Below the pieces are notes generated by a model. That model was not told where the DNA came from. It saw only the letters and a list, made by a program, of their open reading frames with translations, and made no database searches. The position numbers and the translations under genes are program-made. Shown here piece after piece: positions 1 to 45,886 of a stretch of 64,000 nt of DNA. The DNA lies in assembly GCA_964234715.1 (NCBI GenBank), contig OZ174276.1, one strand, 5' to 3'. Each line of letters begins with the position of its first letter. Position 1 is the first letter of the stretch. The stretch is from Podarcis melisellensis (Eukaryota).

Positions 1-2187
1 CTGCTGCAGAACCCTTGCGCGGAGCTCGTCGCTTGGTACGTAGAGGGCGCCTTTGCGAGTTAACAGCCCGTCGCGTAACTGGAACTCATCGTCTCTCTGT
101 GAACCCCTGCGCAGCTCCTCCATCTTGGATTGTGCAAACTGATCCATTTGCAACGCGCGTCGCACCGCGTCCAGGTCGACTGCGATGGCAGCGCACGCCC
201 ACGCCTGCGGTGCAAAAATGTGCTTGGCTGCTACTGGTGCCGCTTCCTCGAGATATTGCGGTTTCCTGGAGAGCGCATCGGCTATAACGTTGGAATCCCC
301 CGGGATGTATTCTATCCTGAAGTCGAAATCCGCGAAGAATTCCGCCCAGCGCATGTGCCTCTGGCTCTGGAGCTTCGCCGTGCGCCAATACTCTAAGTTT
401 TTGTGGTCCGTGCGGACCTGCACGGTGTGCTTGGCTCCTATGAGGAAGTGTCGCCACGCTTTGAAAGCTGCGTGAATGGCCAACAGCTCCCTGTCCCATA
501 TAGTGTAGTTTTGCTCCGTGTTGCTGAGCTTCCGGGAGTAAAAGGCACCGGGTCTCCAGTTCCCTTGCGGATCTTCTTGCAGAAGGACGGCTCCAACCGC
601 TCTGTCTGATGCGTCAGTCTCGACTCGCATGGGCCTGCCGGGATTCACGTGCAGCAGCTGCTCCTCGGAAGCGAAGAGGCTTTTAAGCTTCCGAAAAGAG
701 CGCTCTGCCTGTTCCGTCCAAGCGAACTTCTTCTTCTTGGAACTGAGAGTGTCCGTGATTGCTGCCGTCTCCTTTGCGAAACCTCTGATGAACTTGCGGT
801 AGAAATTGGCGAACCCGACGAATCTCTGGACTTCCTTCCGATTGCGTGGGCTCTTCCAGTCCAACACCGCGTGGACCTTGACGCTGTCCATGGCCAACCC
901 CTTGTCGGACAGCTTGTAGCCGAGGAAATCCACCTCCGTCACATCGAACTGGCACTTCTCCAACTTGGCGTAGAGCCTGTGTTCCCGTAGTCTTTGCAGG
1001 ACCTCCTTTACGTCTCTCTCATGAGCTTCCGGCGATTCCGAGAAGATCAGGATGTCGTCGAGAAAACACACACACTTCTTGTAGAGGAGTCCCGCCAGCA
1101 CGTGATGCATAAAGGCTTGGAAGACGTGAGAGCCATTTTGGAGACCAAACGGCATAACTCTGTATTCATACGTGCCCAGAGGCGTGAACATGGCCGTCTT
1201 CCACTCATCGCCCTCCCGGATACGTATGAGGTTGTACGCTCCACGCAGATCCAACTTGGTGAAGATCTTCCCCTTCCTCACGGTCGCTAGGAGGTCGTCA
1301 ATCTTGGGCATGGGAAAGGCCTTGGGCTTAGTCATCCTGTTTATGGCCCTATAGTCCACAATGAGCCTTTTCTGGGGCGTGTCCTTCTTCTTCACAAAAA
1401 ACACAGGACTGCCCCCCACTGCTTTGGATTCCCGGATGAATCCGCGCTTCAAATTATGCTCTATGAACTCTCTGAGTTCTTTTATCTCGTCTTCAGACAT
1501 GGAATACAGCTTTGCAGTCGGTAGCTGCGCCCCCGGCAACAGGTCGATCGCACAGTCGTAAGGCCTGTGGGGTGGCAACTGGTCAGCTTCCTTCTCGCAG
1601 AAAACCTCCAAGAATCCTTCATACTTGCGAGGTACTGCCTGCACCATGCCAAGTTGCAGCTGCTGCTCAGCCTCCTCCTCCTGGCTGGGCTGGATGCAAT
1701 GTTGAGCACAATACGATGAGCAGAAGGTGATCTGCCGTTGGTACCACGCTACAGCAGGACTATGCCTCTCCAGCCAACTCATGCCTAATGCTATAGGCGT
1801 GTCTGACAAGTGGGTGACATTGAAGCTAATGACTTCTCGATGATTTCCAATCCGCATCACCATGGGAGGCGTCTGTTGCACAACTTGCCCTCCTAGCAAT
1901 TTCCTGCCATCCACCGTAACTACGTTCAGAGGCGTTGTTGCGGGCAGAAGCGCTATGCGATGCTGCTTGACAAATTGCATCCCCACAAAATCCGCGTTGC
2001 TCCCAGAATCGATCGTGATGGGAACTTCCAGGGTGGTTCCATTCTGCAACTGAAGTGTTGCAGTGAGCTGCACCGCTGGCTTGGGTGGTAAAGGGTCTGT
2101 GCATTGCAAAAGCGCTGGGGACTGCTCTACAGATCCGCCTGGCTGAGCCCCAGCAGCTCTGCTTCCAGCCAGGCACTGTCGTTTCCC
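1..2187 (-). CDS. pol: Retrotransposon pol (aspartic protease, reverse transcriptase, RNase H, start of linker to integrase); partial, 729 codons with no stop
   Basis: Manual translation: ITIDSGSNADF (DSG at 2002-2010), LGMSWL, LPPHRPYDCAIDL, SPVFFVKKKD, RLIVDYRAIN, KLDLRGAYNLIRI, EWKTAMF, MPFGL, CFLDDILIFS (1054-1065), FLGY, FVGFANFYRKFI, ETDASDRAVGAVL, YSRKL, RELLAI, TDHKNL, ADALSR. Confidence 0.93.
2114..2187 (-). promoter_or_regulatory. -1 programmed ribosomal frameshift signal: G GGA AAC heptamer plus H-type pseudoknot
   Basis: Heptamer at 2187-2181 in gag frame, 6-nt spacer. Stem 1 GCCTGGCTG/CAGCCAGGC (2174-2166 with 2145-2137). Stem 2 GCTGGGG/CCCCAGC (2154-2148 with 2120-2114). pol is in the -1 frame. 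Confidence 0.85.
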
Positions 2188-3187
2188 TGAGGTTGCTCTT
2201 CTTGCATCACTTCTGCTGCCACTGTTGCCAAAGCTGCAGTGTGCTTCTGGAGCCTCTGGGGGCACTCTTTCGCCATATGCTGTGCACTGTCACAGATGTA
2301 ACATTTCCTGGTCCCTCTAGGAGGCTTCGCCTTTACTGCACCGGAAACAGGGGCTCTGGCTGGCGTTTGAGCCCTAGCACCACCAATTTCCATCGGCTCT
2401 TCTCCCTGCCTCCCCAAAAGCGAGGGATGTGCCTGGCCGAAGTCCCTGGGAATAAAAGGGGGGGTCCTTGCTGGTGCACGCGTCTGGCGTCCTTCATCAT
2501 CGTGCCAAGGGCGTCCCTCGTGTCTTACTCCTATCGCAAGAGCCCTCTGCACCACGTCTTCTAGGGTCTGGGGTCTGTCTCCCCTGGCAAGCTCATCTTT
2601 TATGGGGCCGCTGAGACCTTCCCAGAACAAATCTCTCACTGGTTTGCAGTCCTTTTCCCAGCCTAACACAGTCAATAATGCGAAGAATCTGGAATGATAC
2701 TGACGTACTGTGGCTTTGCCTTGCCGCAGTCCATGCATCTCCCTGCGCGCAATATCAAGATCCACAGTTGATTGGAAACAAGCATCCATCGCTTTAATAA
2801 ATTCATCAGAATCGCGGCGGGCAGGGCCATCTTCGCGCCACAAATTGCGCAACCATGCAAATGAGACACAATAAATCCCACCTTCTTTTCTTCATCTTTA
2901 AAGTCATTGCGAAGCAAATGCAGTGCATATAAGACGTCTGCTCTGAAACTAGGGTACTGCTTCAAGTTCCCATCGAAGTGGGTGACTAAATTGCCCCCCC
3001 GCCTTCCAAGTCCAAGTCCCTCCGATCTGGACCCTGGGAACCCTTCCCTGCTTGCACGCTCCCACCTTGTTTGCAGGTCCTGGCAGCGCTTCTCCAGTTC
3101 GTCATTCTTCTTCTGAGATGCAATGACTGCAGCGGTGAGTTCGGTAACCTGGTTCCCCAGCGCCATCAGCTGTTCCTCCGCACTCAT
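2127..3187 (-). pseudogene. gag: Retrotransposon gag, frameshifted near 2855-2860
   Basis: ATG at 3187 (MSAEEQLMALGNQVTELTAAV..., coiled-coil-like; FDGNLKQYPSF...KKVGFIVSHL). Continues in another frame (AWLRNLW...LRQGKATVRQYHSRF...FWEGLSGPIKDEL...EPMEIG) with zinc knuckle CYICDSAQHMAKEC. Stop TAG at 2127-2129. Confidence 0.85.
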
Positions 3188-3238: not shown

Positions 3239-3248
3239 GAGGGTACTT
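3239..3248 (-). promoter_or_regulatory. Self-priming primer-binding site (AAGTACCCTC), complementary to the predicted transcript 5' end at 3397-3388
   Basis: Starts 2 nt after the LTR end. It is the exact 10-nt reverse complement of GAGGGTACTT inside the LTR, and there is no TGG tRNA-type PBS. Confidence 0.8.
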
Positions 3249-3250
3249 AC

Positions 3251-4034
3251 TGTCAGAGCCACCCGAGGTCCCAGCTCACGAGAGACCCAAGTCCAATCCG
3301 GTTTATATACAAAAGTCTTTATTGAAGAACATTGTTGGCTTTACATCCGAGACCTGTGGCTCTACGTCTGTTACGCTTAGACCGCTGAAGTACCCTCTGA
3401 ATCAGTACCGCCCCTGCACCAGTTTAAGAGGCTTGTGCTGGACCACCTCTTCCTCTCCTTCCTTTTCCGCAGGGTCTTTCTGCCCCCCTGGGTTCCCTCC
3501 CGCCGGGACTCCCCAGAGGCTGAATCCTCTGACGCCTGTTCCCCCCTCCTTCGCGCTTTGGGACCAGGCTCCTCCCCAGGGCTTCCCTCACTTCCGCGCG
3601 CCTCCACATTTGAACTTGGCGCGCGTACGTTGCTTCTGACCTTCCTCTCGACCGCTACACTGCTCCCGGTGCTACTCTCCGCCCCTTCCGGCAGGACGTC
3701 TTGCCCCGATCTCCTTCCCCTCTCTCCTTCCTGTTCTGCTCCCTCTGACACACTGGTAACTCCACCCCCTTCACTCCGTTCCGGCGGAGAAGCCGGCCCC
3801 GATCTCCAACTCCCACTGGGGGTTCTCCCTTCGCTCCCCTGCTCCTGACTGCTTCCCCCTTTGGCTCCCCTTGGCCTGACCAGGGGGGCTTCCTTTTGGG
3901 AATCCTCCGACTCACTGGACAGACTCATGGACGACCTTTGGTCATTGTCATCCTCTTCCTCGTCGTTCTGGGATTCTTCCCCCTCGCTCACTGTCTCCTC
4001 CCTCATCTGCTCTTCTCTCCCTGAACCCCTGACA
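3251..4034 (-). repeat. 5' LTR (784 bp) of the Gypsy element
   Basis: Inverted termini TGTCAG (3251-3256) and CTGACA (4029-4034). AATAAA on minus at 3318-3323, TATA-like CTTAAA on minus at 3423-3428. Lies directly upstream of the PBS and gag. The second LTR is outside the window. Confidence 0.85.
3377..4006 (-). other. 209-aa ORF within LTR U3 (acidic/Ser-rich N-terminus, basic NLS-like C-terminus); function unknown
   Basis: In the ORF track. The frame is open back to the LTR start. Contains EEESQNDEEEDDND and RKTLRKRKERKR. Confidence 0.35.
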
Positions 4035-4242
4035 CATACGCTTCAGGTTACAGACTCCACTAACCCAGAAATAGTGCTTCAGGTTAAGAACTTTGCTTCA
4101 GGGTGAGAACAGAAATTGTGCTCCGGCGGCGCGGCAGCAGCAGGAGGCCCCATTGGCTAAAGTGGTGCTTCAGGTTAAGAACAGTTTCAGGTTAAGAACG
4201 GACCTCCGGAACGAATTAAGTACTTAACCCGAGATACCACTG
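4035..4242. mobile_element. Right half of a Tc1/mariner (pogo/Tigger-like) MITE interrupted by the LTR element
   Basis: Ends in ...CTTAACCCGAGATACCACTG then TA. The TIR resembles the 5347-5577 element. Internal repeats of CTTCAGGTTAAGAAC. Confidence 0.75.
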
Positions 4243-4357
4243 TAATGTAATGCGGTTTCACCGCACATCTTGCTATATGCTGCCTTCAGGGAGGAAGGCT
4301 GGTATAAGGTTCATCAATGGAGACAGGTGTCTTATTAACGCAGGTTTGTCACCACAG

Positions 4358-4485: not shown

Positions 4486-4742
4486 GTAATTCTATTCTTG
4501 TATTTCTTTAGAGCGAGGGTGGGCAGCACTTCATTAAAGGCTGATCTAAAACTGGTAGTATATTGAGCAAGGCAACAGCAGCTCTTGATATTACATCTAC
4601 CATCTTGTGGACTAGAGCTGTGAGGGAATGTTCTTCTCTCCCATCTAGTTTCCTCTGAGGAGGAGGAAGCTACTTCTCAGACCAGAGCTGTGGAAGCTGC
4701 TCAAGAAAAACCAATTTACTTTCTTCCCCCCTCCAACTTCAG

Positions 4743-4925
4743 GACCCAACTGCCAAGATTGGATTGAACTGCAGTATTGGTCCCAATGTCACCATTGGGG
4801 CAGGAGTGGTGATAGAGGACGGGGTTCGGATCAAACGTTGCACTGTGCTGAAGGGGTCGCGGATCCGGTCTCATTCGTGGCTGGAGTCCTGCATTGTTGG
4901 CTGGAGCTCCTCTGTAGGCCAGTGG
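4743..4925 (+). CDS. GMPPB: GMPPB penultimate coding exon (hexapeptide/left-handed beta-helix region)
   Basis: ttcag|[61 protein letters not shown]|gtgagt; 183 bp, phase 0 at both ends. Confidence 0.97.
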
Positions 4926-5346
4926 GTGAGTTATGTGACAGAGCAATCCTCATCAGTCAGATATACACTGGGGAAAGTGAAGCTGCAGCCCAGCTGCTGT
5001 AGGTTGAGGGAATGTAAACATTTTCTGCTCTTCTGTGGGGGAAATGTTACCTCTTTGGGCAGGACCAGTAAATGGAGAGAGCTGGAACGCAGGATAATTT
5101 TGTTTATTCCTTTTGGTGGCCCCAATGTGCCTGTTTGCTGGCCTTAACATGCCCCCTTTTTGCCTTGCACACTGGGATAGCTTGTGCCAGGAGAGCTTTA
5201 CTTCAGTCAGGTGAAGTCGCCAGCTTAAGGCCACCTGAGCCACAAGGGGGGGGACATCAGGTCATATCTTAACCTCTCCCAGCCAGTGTGTCTGGGACTT
5301 AAGAACTGCACTGTTGGTCAGAGCTGCATCTCAGCAAGACTAACTA

Positions 5347-25828: not shown

Positions 25829-25959
25829 TAGGTGTGAGGAATCTTTGGCCCTCCAGATATTGCTGAACTACAATTCCCATCATCCTCAGCAAGCATGGCC
25901 AGGGATGATGCGAGTTGTAGTTCAGCAACATCTGGAGGGCCAAAGGTTCTGCACATCTG
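25829..25959. mobile_element. Palindromic hAT-type MITE
   Basis: Arms CTTTGGCCCTCCAGATATTGCTGAACTACAA / TTGTAGTTCAGCAACATCTGGAGGGCCAAAG. Confidence 0.8.
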
Positions 25960-34290: not shown

Positions 34291-35400
34291 TGAGCCCAAG
34301 GACCACATTCCGTCATGGACAACCTTATGGGTGCCTAATGCCATTGGTGGGTGTGCCAAAGGCAAAAGTGGGGTGAGCAACAGGCGTGAGCCCTACGAAC
34401 ACGTCTCCCCATCCAGGCATCCAAAAGGCACTACGTCAGTTCAGGAACAAGCAAAAGCACATGGGGAGGTGTGGAGCAGGGCTGATGTGATGTGTGACCT
34501 GTGAAAGGGGTTTGTGCTGGGTAGAGTCTCAAAGCCTCATTAGAAAGGTCTGGAGAGTGAATATTTGGCCTCTGAATCGGAAGTTCCATAGCCCTGGTGC
34601 ACACAATACTACATGGAATATTCTGAAGCGGCACAAGGCACCTTCTCGCATTCCTACAGAATGAAGAAGGTAGGACAGACTATCTTATGTCCACTAGGAA
34701 GAACCGGACATCTGCAAACAAGTCAAAACCCCTGTTTCTCCACAAAGTGGCCTTCGAGCCACATACCTACTGGGAAGTAGAAGAGCGGTTCCATTCTAAG
34801 TGACTGTGCCCACTCTACACCCATTAAAAAAGGATGAGAAAGCATGAAATACTATCCACATGCTCACTTCTACACATTTCTTCAATGGGAAAACAATCTC
34901 ATATCTAAGGAGATAGCCAATTACTCAGAGGCAAAGTTCAGAGATCATGCTAGAACCCAGTTTAGCACCATGTGGATGAGCCTTAGTAAGGGCATGTAAC
35001 CCCCTGCCCCAGCAAAGAGTGGTTTCTGTTTTTGTTAATGACTGGTTATTTATTGCTTTCCAGAGCAGTTTCCCTCATCATTAAAAGCAACCCAATGTTT
35101 CTGAAAGCACATGCTTCATTCCCATCTGAATTAATCTTTAATTTAAGACACCTAGCAATGAGGTTTGTTTTCAATCTAAAAAGGCAAATGAAAGCATAAG
35201 TGCATCTATGAGTGCATTCCGCCACCTGTGCATTGCCTAAAGACACCCAATCTCAACGCCTTTGATGCCTTCTGACCAGAAAAGGGTGCTGCTAAACCTT
35301 CCCAGCTTTGACCTGCTAACAACATAAAAATAAGGACATCCCTGCTGGATCAGGCTAGGCCTATCTAGACCAGCATCCTCTCCTTACTCTTGATAGCAAT

Positions 35401-35482
35401 CCCTAGCTAGCAGGACCAGTGGTCAGGGATGATGGGAAATGTAGTCCAAAAACAACTGGAGACCCAAGTTTGGGAAACCCTG
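35401..35482. mobile_element. Truncated inverted copy of the 41811-41946 hAT MITE
   Basis: Reverse complement of that element's left part, ending AAGTTTGGGAAACCCTG. Confidence 0.75.
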
Positions 35483-35619
35483 CTCTAGATCATCCATGAA
35501 CAAGTTAAACTAGCACATCCCAAAACCATTTCTTGGGGGACTCTACTTTCTACTACCTTCCATTGGTAGAACTTTACACTTATTCCTACTCTCTGCTTCC
35601 TTTTTCTTAACCTCATCCA

Positions 35620-40928: not shown

Positions 40929-41810
40929 ATCAAAACTCCTATTAGGCATGCATGGCTCAGGCCTTAGGGCATGCCTAAAGCAGCTCTTTGAATCCCAGGT
41001 CATTATGTATTTCTAACCAGGGTTCTATAAGTCCACTCACGAGAGGACATGCTCCCTTGCCCTATACTACATGCCCAGAACAAAGATCCTATTCCTGCTG
41101 GGTTTTTGCAGGAGGTAGCAGTAGTGAGGTGCTACTGGTGCTTCCTGCAAAAGCCCAGCATGAGAGAAGCAGCACCCTTCCTTCTTCCAAGGACAACTCA
41201 AGGGAAGAAAGTTGGAGCAGCTTCTCTCCCTTCTTGCTAGGCTTCTGAAGGAGGGTGGCAAGTGAGGAGAAGCACCCTGAAGCGAATGATCCCCTTTGCA
41301 AACCCCTACATGGGAGATCCCCACTTCTCAATTCTGTATGCCTGCTTTAGACATTATTAAGGCCTTTCAGTATAGTTGTCATGGTCTGGAAATCATAGGA
41401 ATTTATAGTAATATAACTGAGCTCATTGAAAGGGATGGCATGTAATTGTCACCAGCCCAGTTTTCCAGCCAGCCCCAGTTAAACAAACATTCTGATAAGT
41501 TTAAATGCCTCCCAAGCCAGAAAGAGTTTGGTGAGCCACTGATTGCTCACACCCCTGGCCCAAGGTCTCTCCCAGTGTGCCTTCTTGTTCTCCATATACC
41601 AATCTTGAAAAAGTGATGTCTAGAAGTGGTTAACACACTTGTATAGAAACAAGATCATTCGGAATACCACATCTCATTCTGGCACACATACCTCCAGAAT
41701 AGATTCCAAAATAATTATCAAATAAACAGCAATTATCAGACTTCACTGGAAGGAAATCAGTACCATGACAGTTAAACTGGCTTAAAGCAGTTTCACTTTG
41801 TAGTGTAGAT

Positions 41811-41946
41811 CAGGGTTTCCCAAACTTGGGTCTCCAGCTGTTTTTGGACTACAATTCCTATCATCCCCAACCACTGGTTCTGCTAGCTAGGGATGATGTG
41901 AGTTGTAGTCCAAAAACAGCTGGAGACCAAAGTTTGGTAAACCCTG
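41811..41946. mobile_element. Complete palindromic hAT MITE (136 bp)
   Basis: Long TIRs CAGGGTTTCCCAAACTT...AAGTTTGGTAAACCCTG; 8-bp TSD gtgtagat/gtgtagaa (7/8 match). Confidence 0.88.
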
Positions 41947-44900
41947 GTGTAGAAGAACCTTTAACAATCTTTAGTGTAAGTTTGTTAAAGAGCACAGTGT
42001 ATGCTGCAGTTCAGCCTAATACTCGGGGCTGCTTAAATGATATCCATTTAGCGACTAAATGTTCACAGTGCCCCCTTCTGGTATGACAGTAAGTCAGCAA
42101 CTGGAGTTCTTAAAGGCACCCAGACCTTTTCCATCTAAACCAAAGCAGCTCAGCCTTCCATAGGAAAGTAACTAGTTGGCACTATGCCTGGCATTGCAGA
42201 GGAATGGCTGCCATTTTATAGGTAAGCATCAATGGGACTTCTAACCAAATGTACCATTAGTGCACGGCAGGTACAGGTCTGCTATGAGGATTTCTACCAG
42301 GGAGATCTACAGCAAGTAAACTGAAGAAAAAGTAATGTAAGTAATCAATTGGTGTGATGCAAGTCTCCCCTCTTCAGATGATCTTTGCAAATCAGCTGAG
42401 GGAGGGATAATTTGCATCAACAGGAGGCTGCTAAACTGGAAGAAGAGGTTTAAAGCCTAGCATCATGCTTTTTTCTTTCTTTTTCCTGTCACTGCTAAAA
42501 TTGTTGGGGGCTTGGGGGGTCAGAAAAAATTGCAGCCATCCCTGTTATAGACTCTGTTAATTGCCCTAGCCCTTGAAAACTCTTGATTCACCCATGCATT
42601 TCTGCAAAAGCATCTCCATTATGATTTCATAGCAATTACAGCTATGAAAATACTATTGTTCAAGTCACGGAGTTAAGAGATAAAGACCCTTGATTCACGC
42701 TCCCTCCATAGTCTTCCAACAGAACAAAACCCGATCCCTCTTCAATGAAAGCCAGCAGCAAGAAGCTACAGATCACAGAGACGGTAATTAGCCCCATTCC
42801 CATCCACTGTTCATGCCTCAGAAACAATTTAGAAGTTATATGATACAACAAAAGTCCAAGGGAGGCCTCTATAATGAGCTGCAATCACTGCTGCGAAAAG
42901 GACCATATTTCACTACAATTAACAAACAAATATCTGTTGGAGATTATTAAGCAATGTTCTGTTTTCACTTGGAAAATGCAGCCTACTCTGTCCTCAGGCT
43001 GTTGATTTACTCCTGTTAAATTGAAATTTGTCCAGGAATTTGCTGTAGATCTCATATGCCACGTTAAAAATGCTTAATAGTAATATATCATCATTAGTCT
43101 GTTCCTATCAATGAAAGTGCAATACGACCTTTCCTCAAAAAGCAATGTGTTATTGAGGGCACTATAGATGAGGACAACATGGGCAAAAGAAAAGAAACAG
43201 CTAGTCTGCCCCACAGAACAGGAAGCAAATGGGCTGTGGAAACAGGGACAGAGAGGGTTACTGGCTGTCAGCATATCAGCTGGGCTGTAAAGGAACTAGT
43301 GTAGAAGCTAGATAGTGTACAGGATCAATGATGAAAGGAGATCAGTCTGGCAAGAAGGGAAACGAGATGCTGTGGTAGATCCAGAATCCCTGCTGAGGCT
43401 GCTGTGGCTGATATACAGGTAAGGGACGGAGGGAGCTTGTTACCCCAATTTGGGTGGGATGGGATTGGCCTCTATAGGGTTTCCCACAACCAGATTAAAA
43501 AAAATAAAAATTCACTTTAATATGGTGTGCTTGGCACATTTATATTTAGGGCTATGTGGCTTTGACCACAGGAGGGAGGATATAATTAGGTTGATTTGTG
43601 TCTATCTGGAAGGCCTTGGTGGGGGGTGGAGAGAATCAGAAATAGCCTGCTTATAGAACTAAAATGCCTAGCCACATGGAGCTCAGCTGTCTGCAAAACA
43701 AGGACAACATTTTGAAAAAATAAGACATGCCAAATGAGAAATTGAAACGTGACACAACAGTTTCATATGGACTGCATTTCGGTGAGAAGGATTAAACTAG
43801 GACATCAGGCAAGATAAAAGCAATCTGAATAGAGTTGCCACACTGGATGGCTGGTTACCTATTTAATTTTTTGAATCTAAAAGATTGTCAAATATTCCAA
43901 GTAGCCGTGATACTGGTGCTGCTACTTGAAGAACTAACCTGCTAATCTAGCATGTGCCTTTAAAACTGCCATTTGTTATTAAATAGTTGTTACTTTGCTT
44001 TACTTTTGCTTTATTTCCTTTATAACAAAAAATGCAACTGCAGACTGGCCCTGCTGTTCCAGGATAAAAGCCAATGAGGAGAACTGCTCAGTAAATCATT
44101 CACTTTTATAGAAACCTTATGTAACAATGTTAAAAGCTTTAATTCAAAGCAATGCTTTAAAAAAGGTAATTTCATTCTTTCACAGTTAACAGTTATCTAA
44201 CTTGTTTTTGCAGTTAACGTAAGTATCAACTCACTTGAGAATATCTGTTTTCCTTATACAGTCTTGACTGATCAAATGGGCCAAATCTTTTTGACCTGTC
44301 AAATGCCTATCCCTAGACCTGAATGCAATTAAGGCTCATTTTAGAAGGAGGCTATGCACATATTTCTCGATGATCATCATGGGTATTTGCACGTGTTTCA
44401 CAGGGGAGTGAATGCACCCTTCTTTTTAAAACACCCCTCTGGACCTTTTTCAGGAGCTTGATGTTCCCATTTTCCTCCTGAAGTTGGAAACGTCAGGAAG
44501 TAAAATATGTCCTTTCCCCAGTGAGGCAGAGGGGTGAGAGGAAGTGCTGAAAGCTGTTTTTAATGCTACTTTAAGATCCACAGTAGACATCAAAAAGAGT
44601 GGAATTAAATGCAAAAAGTATTTATTGACTGCCTGCATTTGAGAAGTTGTTTACCTCATTCAGATGATTGTATCAAAACTTAATCAGCCGAGATATGAAC
44701 AAACCTTATGCCAGCCAAACCACTTCTTCCTGTCTTAGCATGTTGCAATTAACCCCAGAGGTCTTCAATTCCACATAATTTCCTGCTATGTCTGAACCAT
44801 GAAACTATGACAATCAGGATCAGAACAACCAGGTTCTTAAACCACCTTCCAACTATGGTTTAATATCCTGGCCTGCCCCCCCCCCCGTCCTGGTAACCAC

Positions 44901-45768: not shown

Positions 45769-45886
45769 GTGGCTAATACTCTAGATGTTGTTGGACTCCA
45801 ACTCCCATCAGCCTCAGCCAACAAGGCTCAGGGATGATGCAAGTTGTAGTCCAACAACATCTGGAGGGCACCACATTGGCTACCTC
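45769..45886. mobile_element. Palindromic hAT-type MITE
   Basis: Inverted arms AGATGTTGTTGGACT ... AGTCCAACAACATCT. Confidence 0.7.

Follow-up and report, generated by a model that had tools for sequence, protein, structure and literature searches.

An open reading frame that fills the U3 region of a Gypsy-type LTR in the lizard Podarcis melisellensis forms the last 218 codons of pol at the 3′ LTR. Comparisons among related copies indicate that this frame is under protein-level purifying selection, and it is probably translated from genomic RNA as a disordered integrase tail with likely roles in nuclear import and chromatin docking. The observed part of this explanation consists of continuity with pol, indels that keep the frame, dN/dS values well under neutral, and loss of the cage aromatics from the chromodomain.

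The element and its pol gene

The window, the whole stretch of DNA that was analysed, comprises 64,000 nt of contig OZ174276.1 (assembly GCA_964234715.1). The element lies on its minus strand, antisense within an intron of the host gene GMPPB. One GMPPB exon was located at 4737..4931 on the plus strand, and earlier exons on the far side of the element, named from their sequence, we take to belong to the same gene. The 5′ LTR (3251..4034, 784 bp, TG..CA) is adjoined by a 5-bp target-site duplication, GTATG (4035..4039). Its partner lies beyond the window, 5.7 kb downstream (G000:C2:68569520-68570303), and differs from it at 4 of 784 positions. Gag (2127..3187, minus strand), with coiled coil, capsid and zinc knuckle, is broken into two frames in this copy. 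Pol enters the window at 1..2289 on the same strand with protease, RT and RNase H, and continues beyond it with integrase, SH3/GPY, a degenerate chromodomain, an acidic linker, the PPT and U3, for a total of 1547 codons. Domain matches comprised the protease, RT and RNase H, the zinc finger and core of integrase, and an SH3 of the Tf2 type. The gag/pol overlap contains GGGAAAC (2181..2187, minus strand), a likely −1 frameshift site as in PEG10; this motif was present in all five subfamily A and B copies inspected.

By its organisation the element is a young Tf1/sushi-type chromovirus. It has gag followed by pol in the order protease, RT, RNase H, integrase, between TG..CA LTRs with a target-site duplication; its integrase ends in a chromodomain, though a degenerate one; and it is self-priming, with a PBS complementary to the transcript 5′ end, the start itself being predicted. 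In RT-RNase H, compared in a tree of 12 rows without named references or outgroup, it is 48-55% identical to elements of fish, frog and family F, and the nearest named proteins to Pol are from Podarcis lizards. The insertion site (4035-4245) is a short repeat with TAACCTGAAGC units that resumes beyond the element; the same repeat was seen beside the LTRs of L012 and L061. Elsewhere in the window, dispersed short repeats in a hairpin-like inverted arrangement (25830-25958, 35399-35487, 41806-41951 and 45783-45882) resemble a squamate SINE.

The U3/R frame (3377..4033, minus strand) is open from the second base of the LTR and ends in TAA at 3379-3377; counted from the ATG at 4006 it has 209 codons. 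The two remaining sense frames of the LTR contain 5 and 7 stops, and the TAA occupies +20..+22 relative to the predicted start at 3398. All of this agrees with the preliminary description, which had reported a single open minus-strand frame encoding 209 aa, two interrupted sense frames and a stop 20 nt past the predicted start. Its account of the product needs one correction: KARRR and RKTLRKRKERKR are present as claimed, but the acidic stretch reads GEESQNDEEEDDND and not EEESQ. Ser, Glu and Gly together make up 47% of the tail, which starts acidic and ends basic. Its acidic/Ser-rich part (3893..4000) counts 14 acidic residues in the first 31. KARRR (3545..3559) lies inside a conserved EPGPKA motif. 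All 8 aligned copies agree at several residues of a further basic cluster, RKTLRKRKERKRWS (3440..3481; all three on the minus strand): two arginines four apart, and R, R, W and S.

How this frame relates to pol at the 3′ LTR had been left as a question, and the answer is that the two share one frame. In the window's element a single ORF of 1547 codons runs from protease through the PPT into the U3 frame of the 3′ LTR and stops at the same TAA. Sixty of 140 matches to pre-LTR pol lay within frames of 1542-1548 codons, many of them amplified duplicates. At 3′ LTR loci, 11 of which share one flank (the C19 group), 8 of 15 kept the U3 frame open for 500 codons upstream, and in 7 of 15 pol and U3 were shifted relative to each other, mostly at G runs. 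Continuity through the PPT was also found in subfamily E (L132, 995 codons) and in subfamily C (frames of 838 and 914 aa), and a Podarcis muralis Pol in UniRef (1498 aa) ends in the same tail.

Two options had been offered for the product, an accessory protein or a C-terminal extension of integrase. The extension stands at the DNA level, as one ORF with pol at the 3′ LTR. A stand-alone gene is unsupported as the main reading, because the U3 frame is continuous with pol and the ATG at 4006 is not conserved; the first Met in U3 falls at codon 10, 14 or 36 according to subfamily. MMTV sag and HIV nef are coding sequences over U3 that are read from the 3′ LTR, as separate genes on spliced mRNAs. 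The lizard frame likewise overlaps U3 and is read from the 3′ LTR, but where a separate gene of this kind would have its own conserved start and no continuity with pol, the lizard frame is continuous with it. The copy of the frame in the 5′ LTR lies almost wholly upstream of the predicted start and would not be translated there; 5′ LTRs and solo LTRs would carry it merely as a by-product of LTR duplication. Pieces of the tail have been deposited as hypothetical Podarcis lilfordi proteins (P0002, P0004, P0005 and P0006), which are probably gene models on retrotransposon copies.

Retention of the U3 frame

Long open frames can arise by chance in an LTR as T-poor and purine-rich as this one, a caveat that the preliminary description had itself raised. 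In 5000 shuffles of the LTR, a stop-free run of at least 209 codons appeared in 0.08% of sequences when mononucleotide composition was kept, 1.1% for dinucleotides and 1.9% for trinucleotides, and an ATG-initiated ORF of 209 codons in 0.02-0.28%. Length alone is thus modestly significant and suggestive, and comparative tests have to decide. Di- and trinucleotide shuffles yield such a run in about 1-3% of cases, which leaves some room for chance. Against it stand the in-frame fusion to pol, indels in multiples of three and low dN/dS, and the retention of the frame in five subfamilies and in Podarcis proteins. Continuity with pol, dN/dS, the neutral probability of remaining stop-free and neutral simulation together refute a chance origin, to which we assign a negligible probability.

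The fetched loci contained 130 distinct LTRs in five main clusters. The frame was scored open in 50/55, 19/40, 25/27, 1/2 and 2/2 members of these clusters and in 0/4 singletons; these sets favour intact copies, because they consist of best hits and cluster C was collected by protein search. An alignment of the DNA of 8 natural copies contained six indel blocks inside the ORF, of 3, 6, 45, 66, 3/6 and 3 nt, each a net multiple of three, and past the stop the indels were of 1-2 nt. Protein identity of the tail among the five subfamilies is about 56-80%.

The dN/dS of the U3 frame was 0.18-0.36 in all 10 pairs compared between subfamilies (upper 95% limits 0.28-0.54; one poorly aligned block was excluded from comparisons of A with the other subfamilies). 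The other two sense frames gave 0.75-2.0. An antisense frame that shares third positions with the U3 frame also gave low values, but it contains stops. Within subfamilies, three pairs gave 0.32, 0.57 and 0.25, the middle value (B1/B2) having a confidence interval that spans 1. Neutral simulation with transition and CpG bias produced median ratios of 0.56-0.84 with 2.5% limits of 0.38-0.59, and the neutral probability of remaining stop-free was 0.4% at 0.3 substitutions per site. Private versus shared mutations in young copies were set aside, being too few and subject to transition bias.

By region, dN/dS was 0.07-0.11 in the integrase core (with the L121 rows dropped there, that copy being out of frame), 0.06-0.28 in the chromodomain-like part, 0.31-0.89 in the internal acidic linker and 0.27-0.44 in U3. 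U3 is similar to the acidic linker, and the regional values are those of a constrained but flexible tail. These ratios also bear on an alternative in which the tail is translated and binds nothing in particular: the frame would be kept as a spacer, or for the sake of a short 3′ UTR and RNA stability, and promoter motifs would explain the conserved residues. The much weaker constraint on the tail (0.2-0.4) than on the integrase core, the tolerance of large in-frame indels (45 and 66 nt) and the position of the stop close to the poly(A) signal are all compatible with such a spacer. A merely open frame, however, would be expected to give ratios near the neutral 0.56-0.84 and not 0.18-0.36; the low ratio is limited to the U3 frame and its antisense mirror; and the acidic-to-basic layout occurs again, without clear sequence similarity, in the separate family F described below. 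We regard the spacer explanation as improbable and favour a tail that is itself under selection.

Predicted promoter and self-primer, and putative splice sites

The most conserved C-terminal residues of the tail coincide with promoter and primer DNA. A TATA-like CTTAAA (3423..3428, minus strand), whose promoter role is presumptive, lies ~30 nt before the predicted start and doubles as the codons for L-N in LLNW. The predicted transcript 5′ end and self-primer (3388..3398, 11 nt, minus strand), placed by co-variation and folding, also encode E-G-T-S near the end of the tail. Downstream of the LTR, GT and a PBS complementary to this predicted transcript end occupy 3239..3250 on the same strand. 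The bases after CA|GT pair with 10-11 nt located about 140 nt upstream, 30 nt past CTTAAA. The A-E clade has four co-varying primer/PBS pairs and family F supplies a fifth; MFE folds of A, B and F contain the helix. Changes in the primer fall at the codons GAG/GAC/GAT, GGT/GGG/GGA/GAG and ACT/GCT.

Since the self-primer puts the start at about 3398, the stop lies in R, 54 nt before a poly(A) signal, AATAAA (3318..3323, minus strand), and the whole frame is carried on the 3′ end of genomic RNA. The last codons of the tail are accordingly predicted to serve three uses at once, as protein, core promoter and self-primer. At 3607-3625, GCGCGCCAAGTTCAAATGT is nearly invariant across subfamilies, third positions included, and may be a promoter element within the coding frame.

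The GTAAGT directly after the LTR had been put forward as a splice donor. It is now explained as GT plus a self-priming PBS that co-varies with the start of R, although an acceptor-like site does exist in 6 of 6 representatives. CA|GT also fits the usual end recognised by integrase. A spliced subgenomic mRNA, with GTAAG behind the 5′ LTR as donor and an acceptor just past the chromodomain, might nonetheless yield the tail a second time, as an accessory protein of its own. GTAAG is present in all PBS variants of subfamilies A-C; all six representatives have an acceptor-like pyrimidine tract with CAG in the corresponding position, 367-421 nt ahead of the 3′ LTR; and in the same six the PPT holds an in-frame ATG in strong context. 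But the self-primer pairing itself needs AAG, the T at position +6 of GTAAGT is not kept (other subfamilies have C), family F has GTTTG, and the Met at 4006 varies among subfamilies. The acceptor-like tract encodes a conserved F-T-P-T-x-S with purine-ended Thr codons, so that protein constraint can explain it. Contigs from 6 putative-RNA runs of related organisms (6 of the 17 listed) cover relatives of the element piecewise, and no junction from the LTR end to the acceptor-like site was among the joints listed for those contigs, which are of a kind that cannot show absence, strand or transcript starts. An additional spliced product is unlikely in our judgement, though less so than a bare spacer, and the integrase tail remains the preferred reading.

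Such self-priming is the arrangement described for Tf1/sushi elements (PMC4600332 and PMC6317226). With these elements (GyDB V-clade: sushi-ichi and Amn) the lizard element shares the Gypsy domain order, a Tf2-type SH3, the chromodomain, a self-complementary PBS and a 5-bp target-site duplication. It differs from them in having lost all three cage aromatics and in carrying, past the chromodomain, a linker of ~160 aa and an LTR-encoded tail of 218 aa; the available parts of PMC6317226 and PMC4600332 describe no such post-chromodomain tail.

Possible function and distribution of the tail

The chromodomain upstream of the PPT gave a Pfam Chromo match at E 0.007, which falls short of the curated cut-off, and its PDB matches were HP1/CBX in 12 of 12 cases (best E 0.02). 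A model shows three strands followed by a helix (pLDDT about 55). Chromodomains of type I, which read methyl-lysine, have Y, W and Y at the cage positions, but the lizard domain has N, R and T (W->R and Y->T against HP1; the N at the first position was read from flanking sequence). Judged from these residues, the domain probably no longer reads methyl-lysine; it is nonetheless strongly conserved. Between chromodomain and PPT, the linker (L031:1310-1720) is acidic and carries conserved tryptophan clusters, YWWD/E, WxRxW and GPW.

For the tail itself, no family was found in Pfam and no usable match in the ESM Atlas; a search of 1.84 billion 50%-representatives returned three hits, none to a named family, and profile searches returned closely related tails only. 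Its function is therefore proposed by analogy. The AlphaFold model, made from 6 sequences, was low-confidence throughout (mean pLDDT 37.5) and gave no confident tail structure, so disorder is suggested by composition as much as by the model. We propose the following course of events. Transcription would begin at R of the 5′ LTR and end at the poly(A) site of the 3′ LTR, Gag-Pol would be made by −1 frameshifting, and the protease would free an integrase with a disordered C-terminus of ~380 residues, ~160 from the linker and 218 encoded by the LTR. The basic clusters could then provide an NLS and arginine anchors for the acidic patch of the nucleosome, and the tail would complement the altered chromodomain.

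Precedents for parts of this scheme exist. Ty1 integrase has a large disordered C-terminus with a bipartite NLS and a targeting domain, and binds Pol III (PMC9673352); Ty1 belongs to the Copia superfamily, and the likeness to the lizard tail is a functional analogy only. RRSARL, the core of the RRSARLSA motif of HMGN and Dsup, binds the nucleosome acidic patch (PMC12487698). The family F tail contains RRSARL. The tail of the window's element, and of the A-E clade, lacks a literal RRSARL, but its two invariant arginines four apart have the spacing of the buried arginines reported in that source. Neither tail matches an HMGN family in Pfam.

A predicted complex of the last 45 tail residues with host H2A-H2B scored 0.46, against 0.01 for the best control, with partner pLDDT of at least 40 and at least 29% of contacts shared between runs. 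In calibration 51 of 78 solved pairs and 2 of 108 mismatched ones passed; passes at 0.60 or under came from only 5 of the 78 solved pairs and from all 4 passing mismatches among 180, and passes at such scores are more often wrong than right unless the complex is likely beforehand. The controls were not basic peptides, peptides lie outside the calibration, and the prediction may echo solved acidic-patch complexes; the prediction hints weakly at binding. At L250-L252 (G000:C2 near 106.11 Mb) lie three host H2A genes whose C-terminal tail is extended and rich in Ala, Lys and Pro (158 aa).

Family F was found by a search with a fish chromovirus C-terminus and is 55% identical to A in RT-RNase H. 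All three cage aromatics of its chromodomain are intact. Its pol enters U3 for 111-117 codons, stopping just before a TATA-like GATAAA, and this extension was found in 26 of 30 loci. Where both LTRs were in view (2 of 14 stretches yielded no LTR pair), it was found in 8 of 12, the other 4 being shifted at the PPT G run. The family F tail is acidic, then basic. Three pairs gave a tail dN/dS of 0.37-0.48 against 1.1-1.6 in the other frames, and a fourth, close pair gave 1.3 on 9 changes. A BLAST match between the A and F tails (26% over 107 aa, composition filters off) was rejected as evidence of homology, being compositional. Family F is young and dispersed (L235:2588-2921, the U3 of a 3′ LTR on the minus strand, G000:C6 near 85.556 Mb; relatives at L236-L247). 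Two frog gene models extend about 100-220 residues past the chromodomain, which may hint at a wider spread.

Loci within 1.5 Mb of a chromosome end were counted with C19 set aside, 3.9% being expected. Subfamily C LTRs lay there in 25 of 114 cases (150 rows merged to 142 loci, 28 of them on C19) and A pol in 15 of 66 (66 of 140 rows, after C19, unplaced and neighbouring rows were dropped), so that 22-23% of A and C loci are near chromosome ends and most are on arms. For B the counts were 20 of 23 internal regions (23 of 40 rows) and 8 of 20 LTRs (20 of 40 rows). The youngest A LTRs (2 of 12) showed no significant excess. Family F was near ends in 3 of 98 cases (98 of 150 rows; Fisher p 1.5e-4 vs A pol). 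Enrichment of the A-E clade, with age and retention uncontrolled, is a lead only, and family F has a U3 tail without it.

Targeting of a satellite by full-length copies on unplaced contigs was considered and rejected. Of 20 stretches fetched, 17 (15 separate places) had readable element ends with the same (TTAGGG)n-plus-spacer satellite junctions, two sharing another; shared junctions imply amplified copies of few insertions. These copies, at the end of C1 and on unplaced contigs (L165-L184), are embedded in the (TTAGGG)n satellite, whose spacer is 30 bp, and were co-amplified with it as one unit. C2 and C4 begin with that satellite as well, and other family members inserted into it independently. 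C19 (38.8 Mb) makes up 2.6% of chromosome length, but 28 of 142 C loci and 22 of 34 top A LTR loci lie on it, with single insertions present in many repeats; it may be a sex chromosome rich in repeats.

In plant CRM group A and in certain beet chromoviruses, pol is described as extending into the 3′ LTR, where it encodes a targeting domain (PMC3059260 and PMC3605345), and gain of the CR domain has been tied to loss of the classical chromodomain (PMC6317226). The lizard pol also runs into the 3′ LTR. It differs from CRM group A in belonging to a vertebrate, self-priming element that retains its degenerate yet conserved chromodomain upstream of the PPT, in a longer frame that spans all of U3 with the TATA-like box and self-primer, and in copies that lie mostly on chromosome arms. 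The element resembles CRM in its architecture without belonging to that group. For Gypsy elements of vertebrates, the literature search found no account of a Pol tail encoded by U3, with Repbase, GyDB and subscription papers outside its scope.

A broader and more speculative proposal, doubtful at present, is that vertebrate self-priming chromoviruses in at least two deeply split lineages have made the U3 promoter code for tails through which integrase docks on the acidic patch of nucleosomes. One lineage would do so by an HMGN-like RRSARL alongside an intact chromodomain, and the other by a long acidic/basic tail that replaces a cage-less chromodomain in targeting and biases insertion to chromosome-end heterochromatin. 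If true, U3-tail docking in two lineages would be an animal parallel to the plant centromeric CRM elements. Two peptides, one from the A-E clade and one from family F, would be cheap tests of how such integrases reach chromatin.

The element has an LTR whose entire predicted promoter region is protein-coding and evolves under codon constraint, its last codons shared with a TATA-like box and a self-primer. Standard annotation misses this module, because LTRs are treated as non-coding and databases label its pieces hypothetical proteins. Solo LTRs of these large families spread intact acidic/basic ORFs in lizard genomes, where they may mislead gene models or feed exonisation, and the tail is a candidate integration-targeting module for vertebrate chromoviruses.
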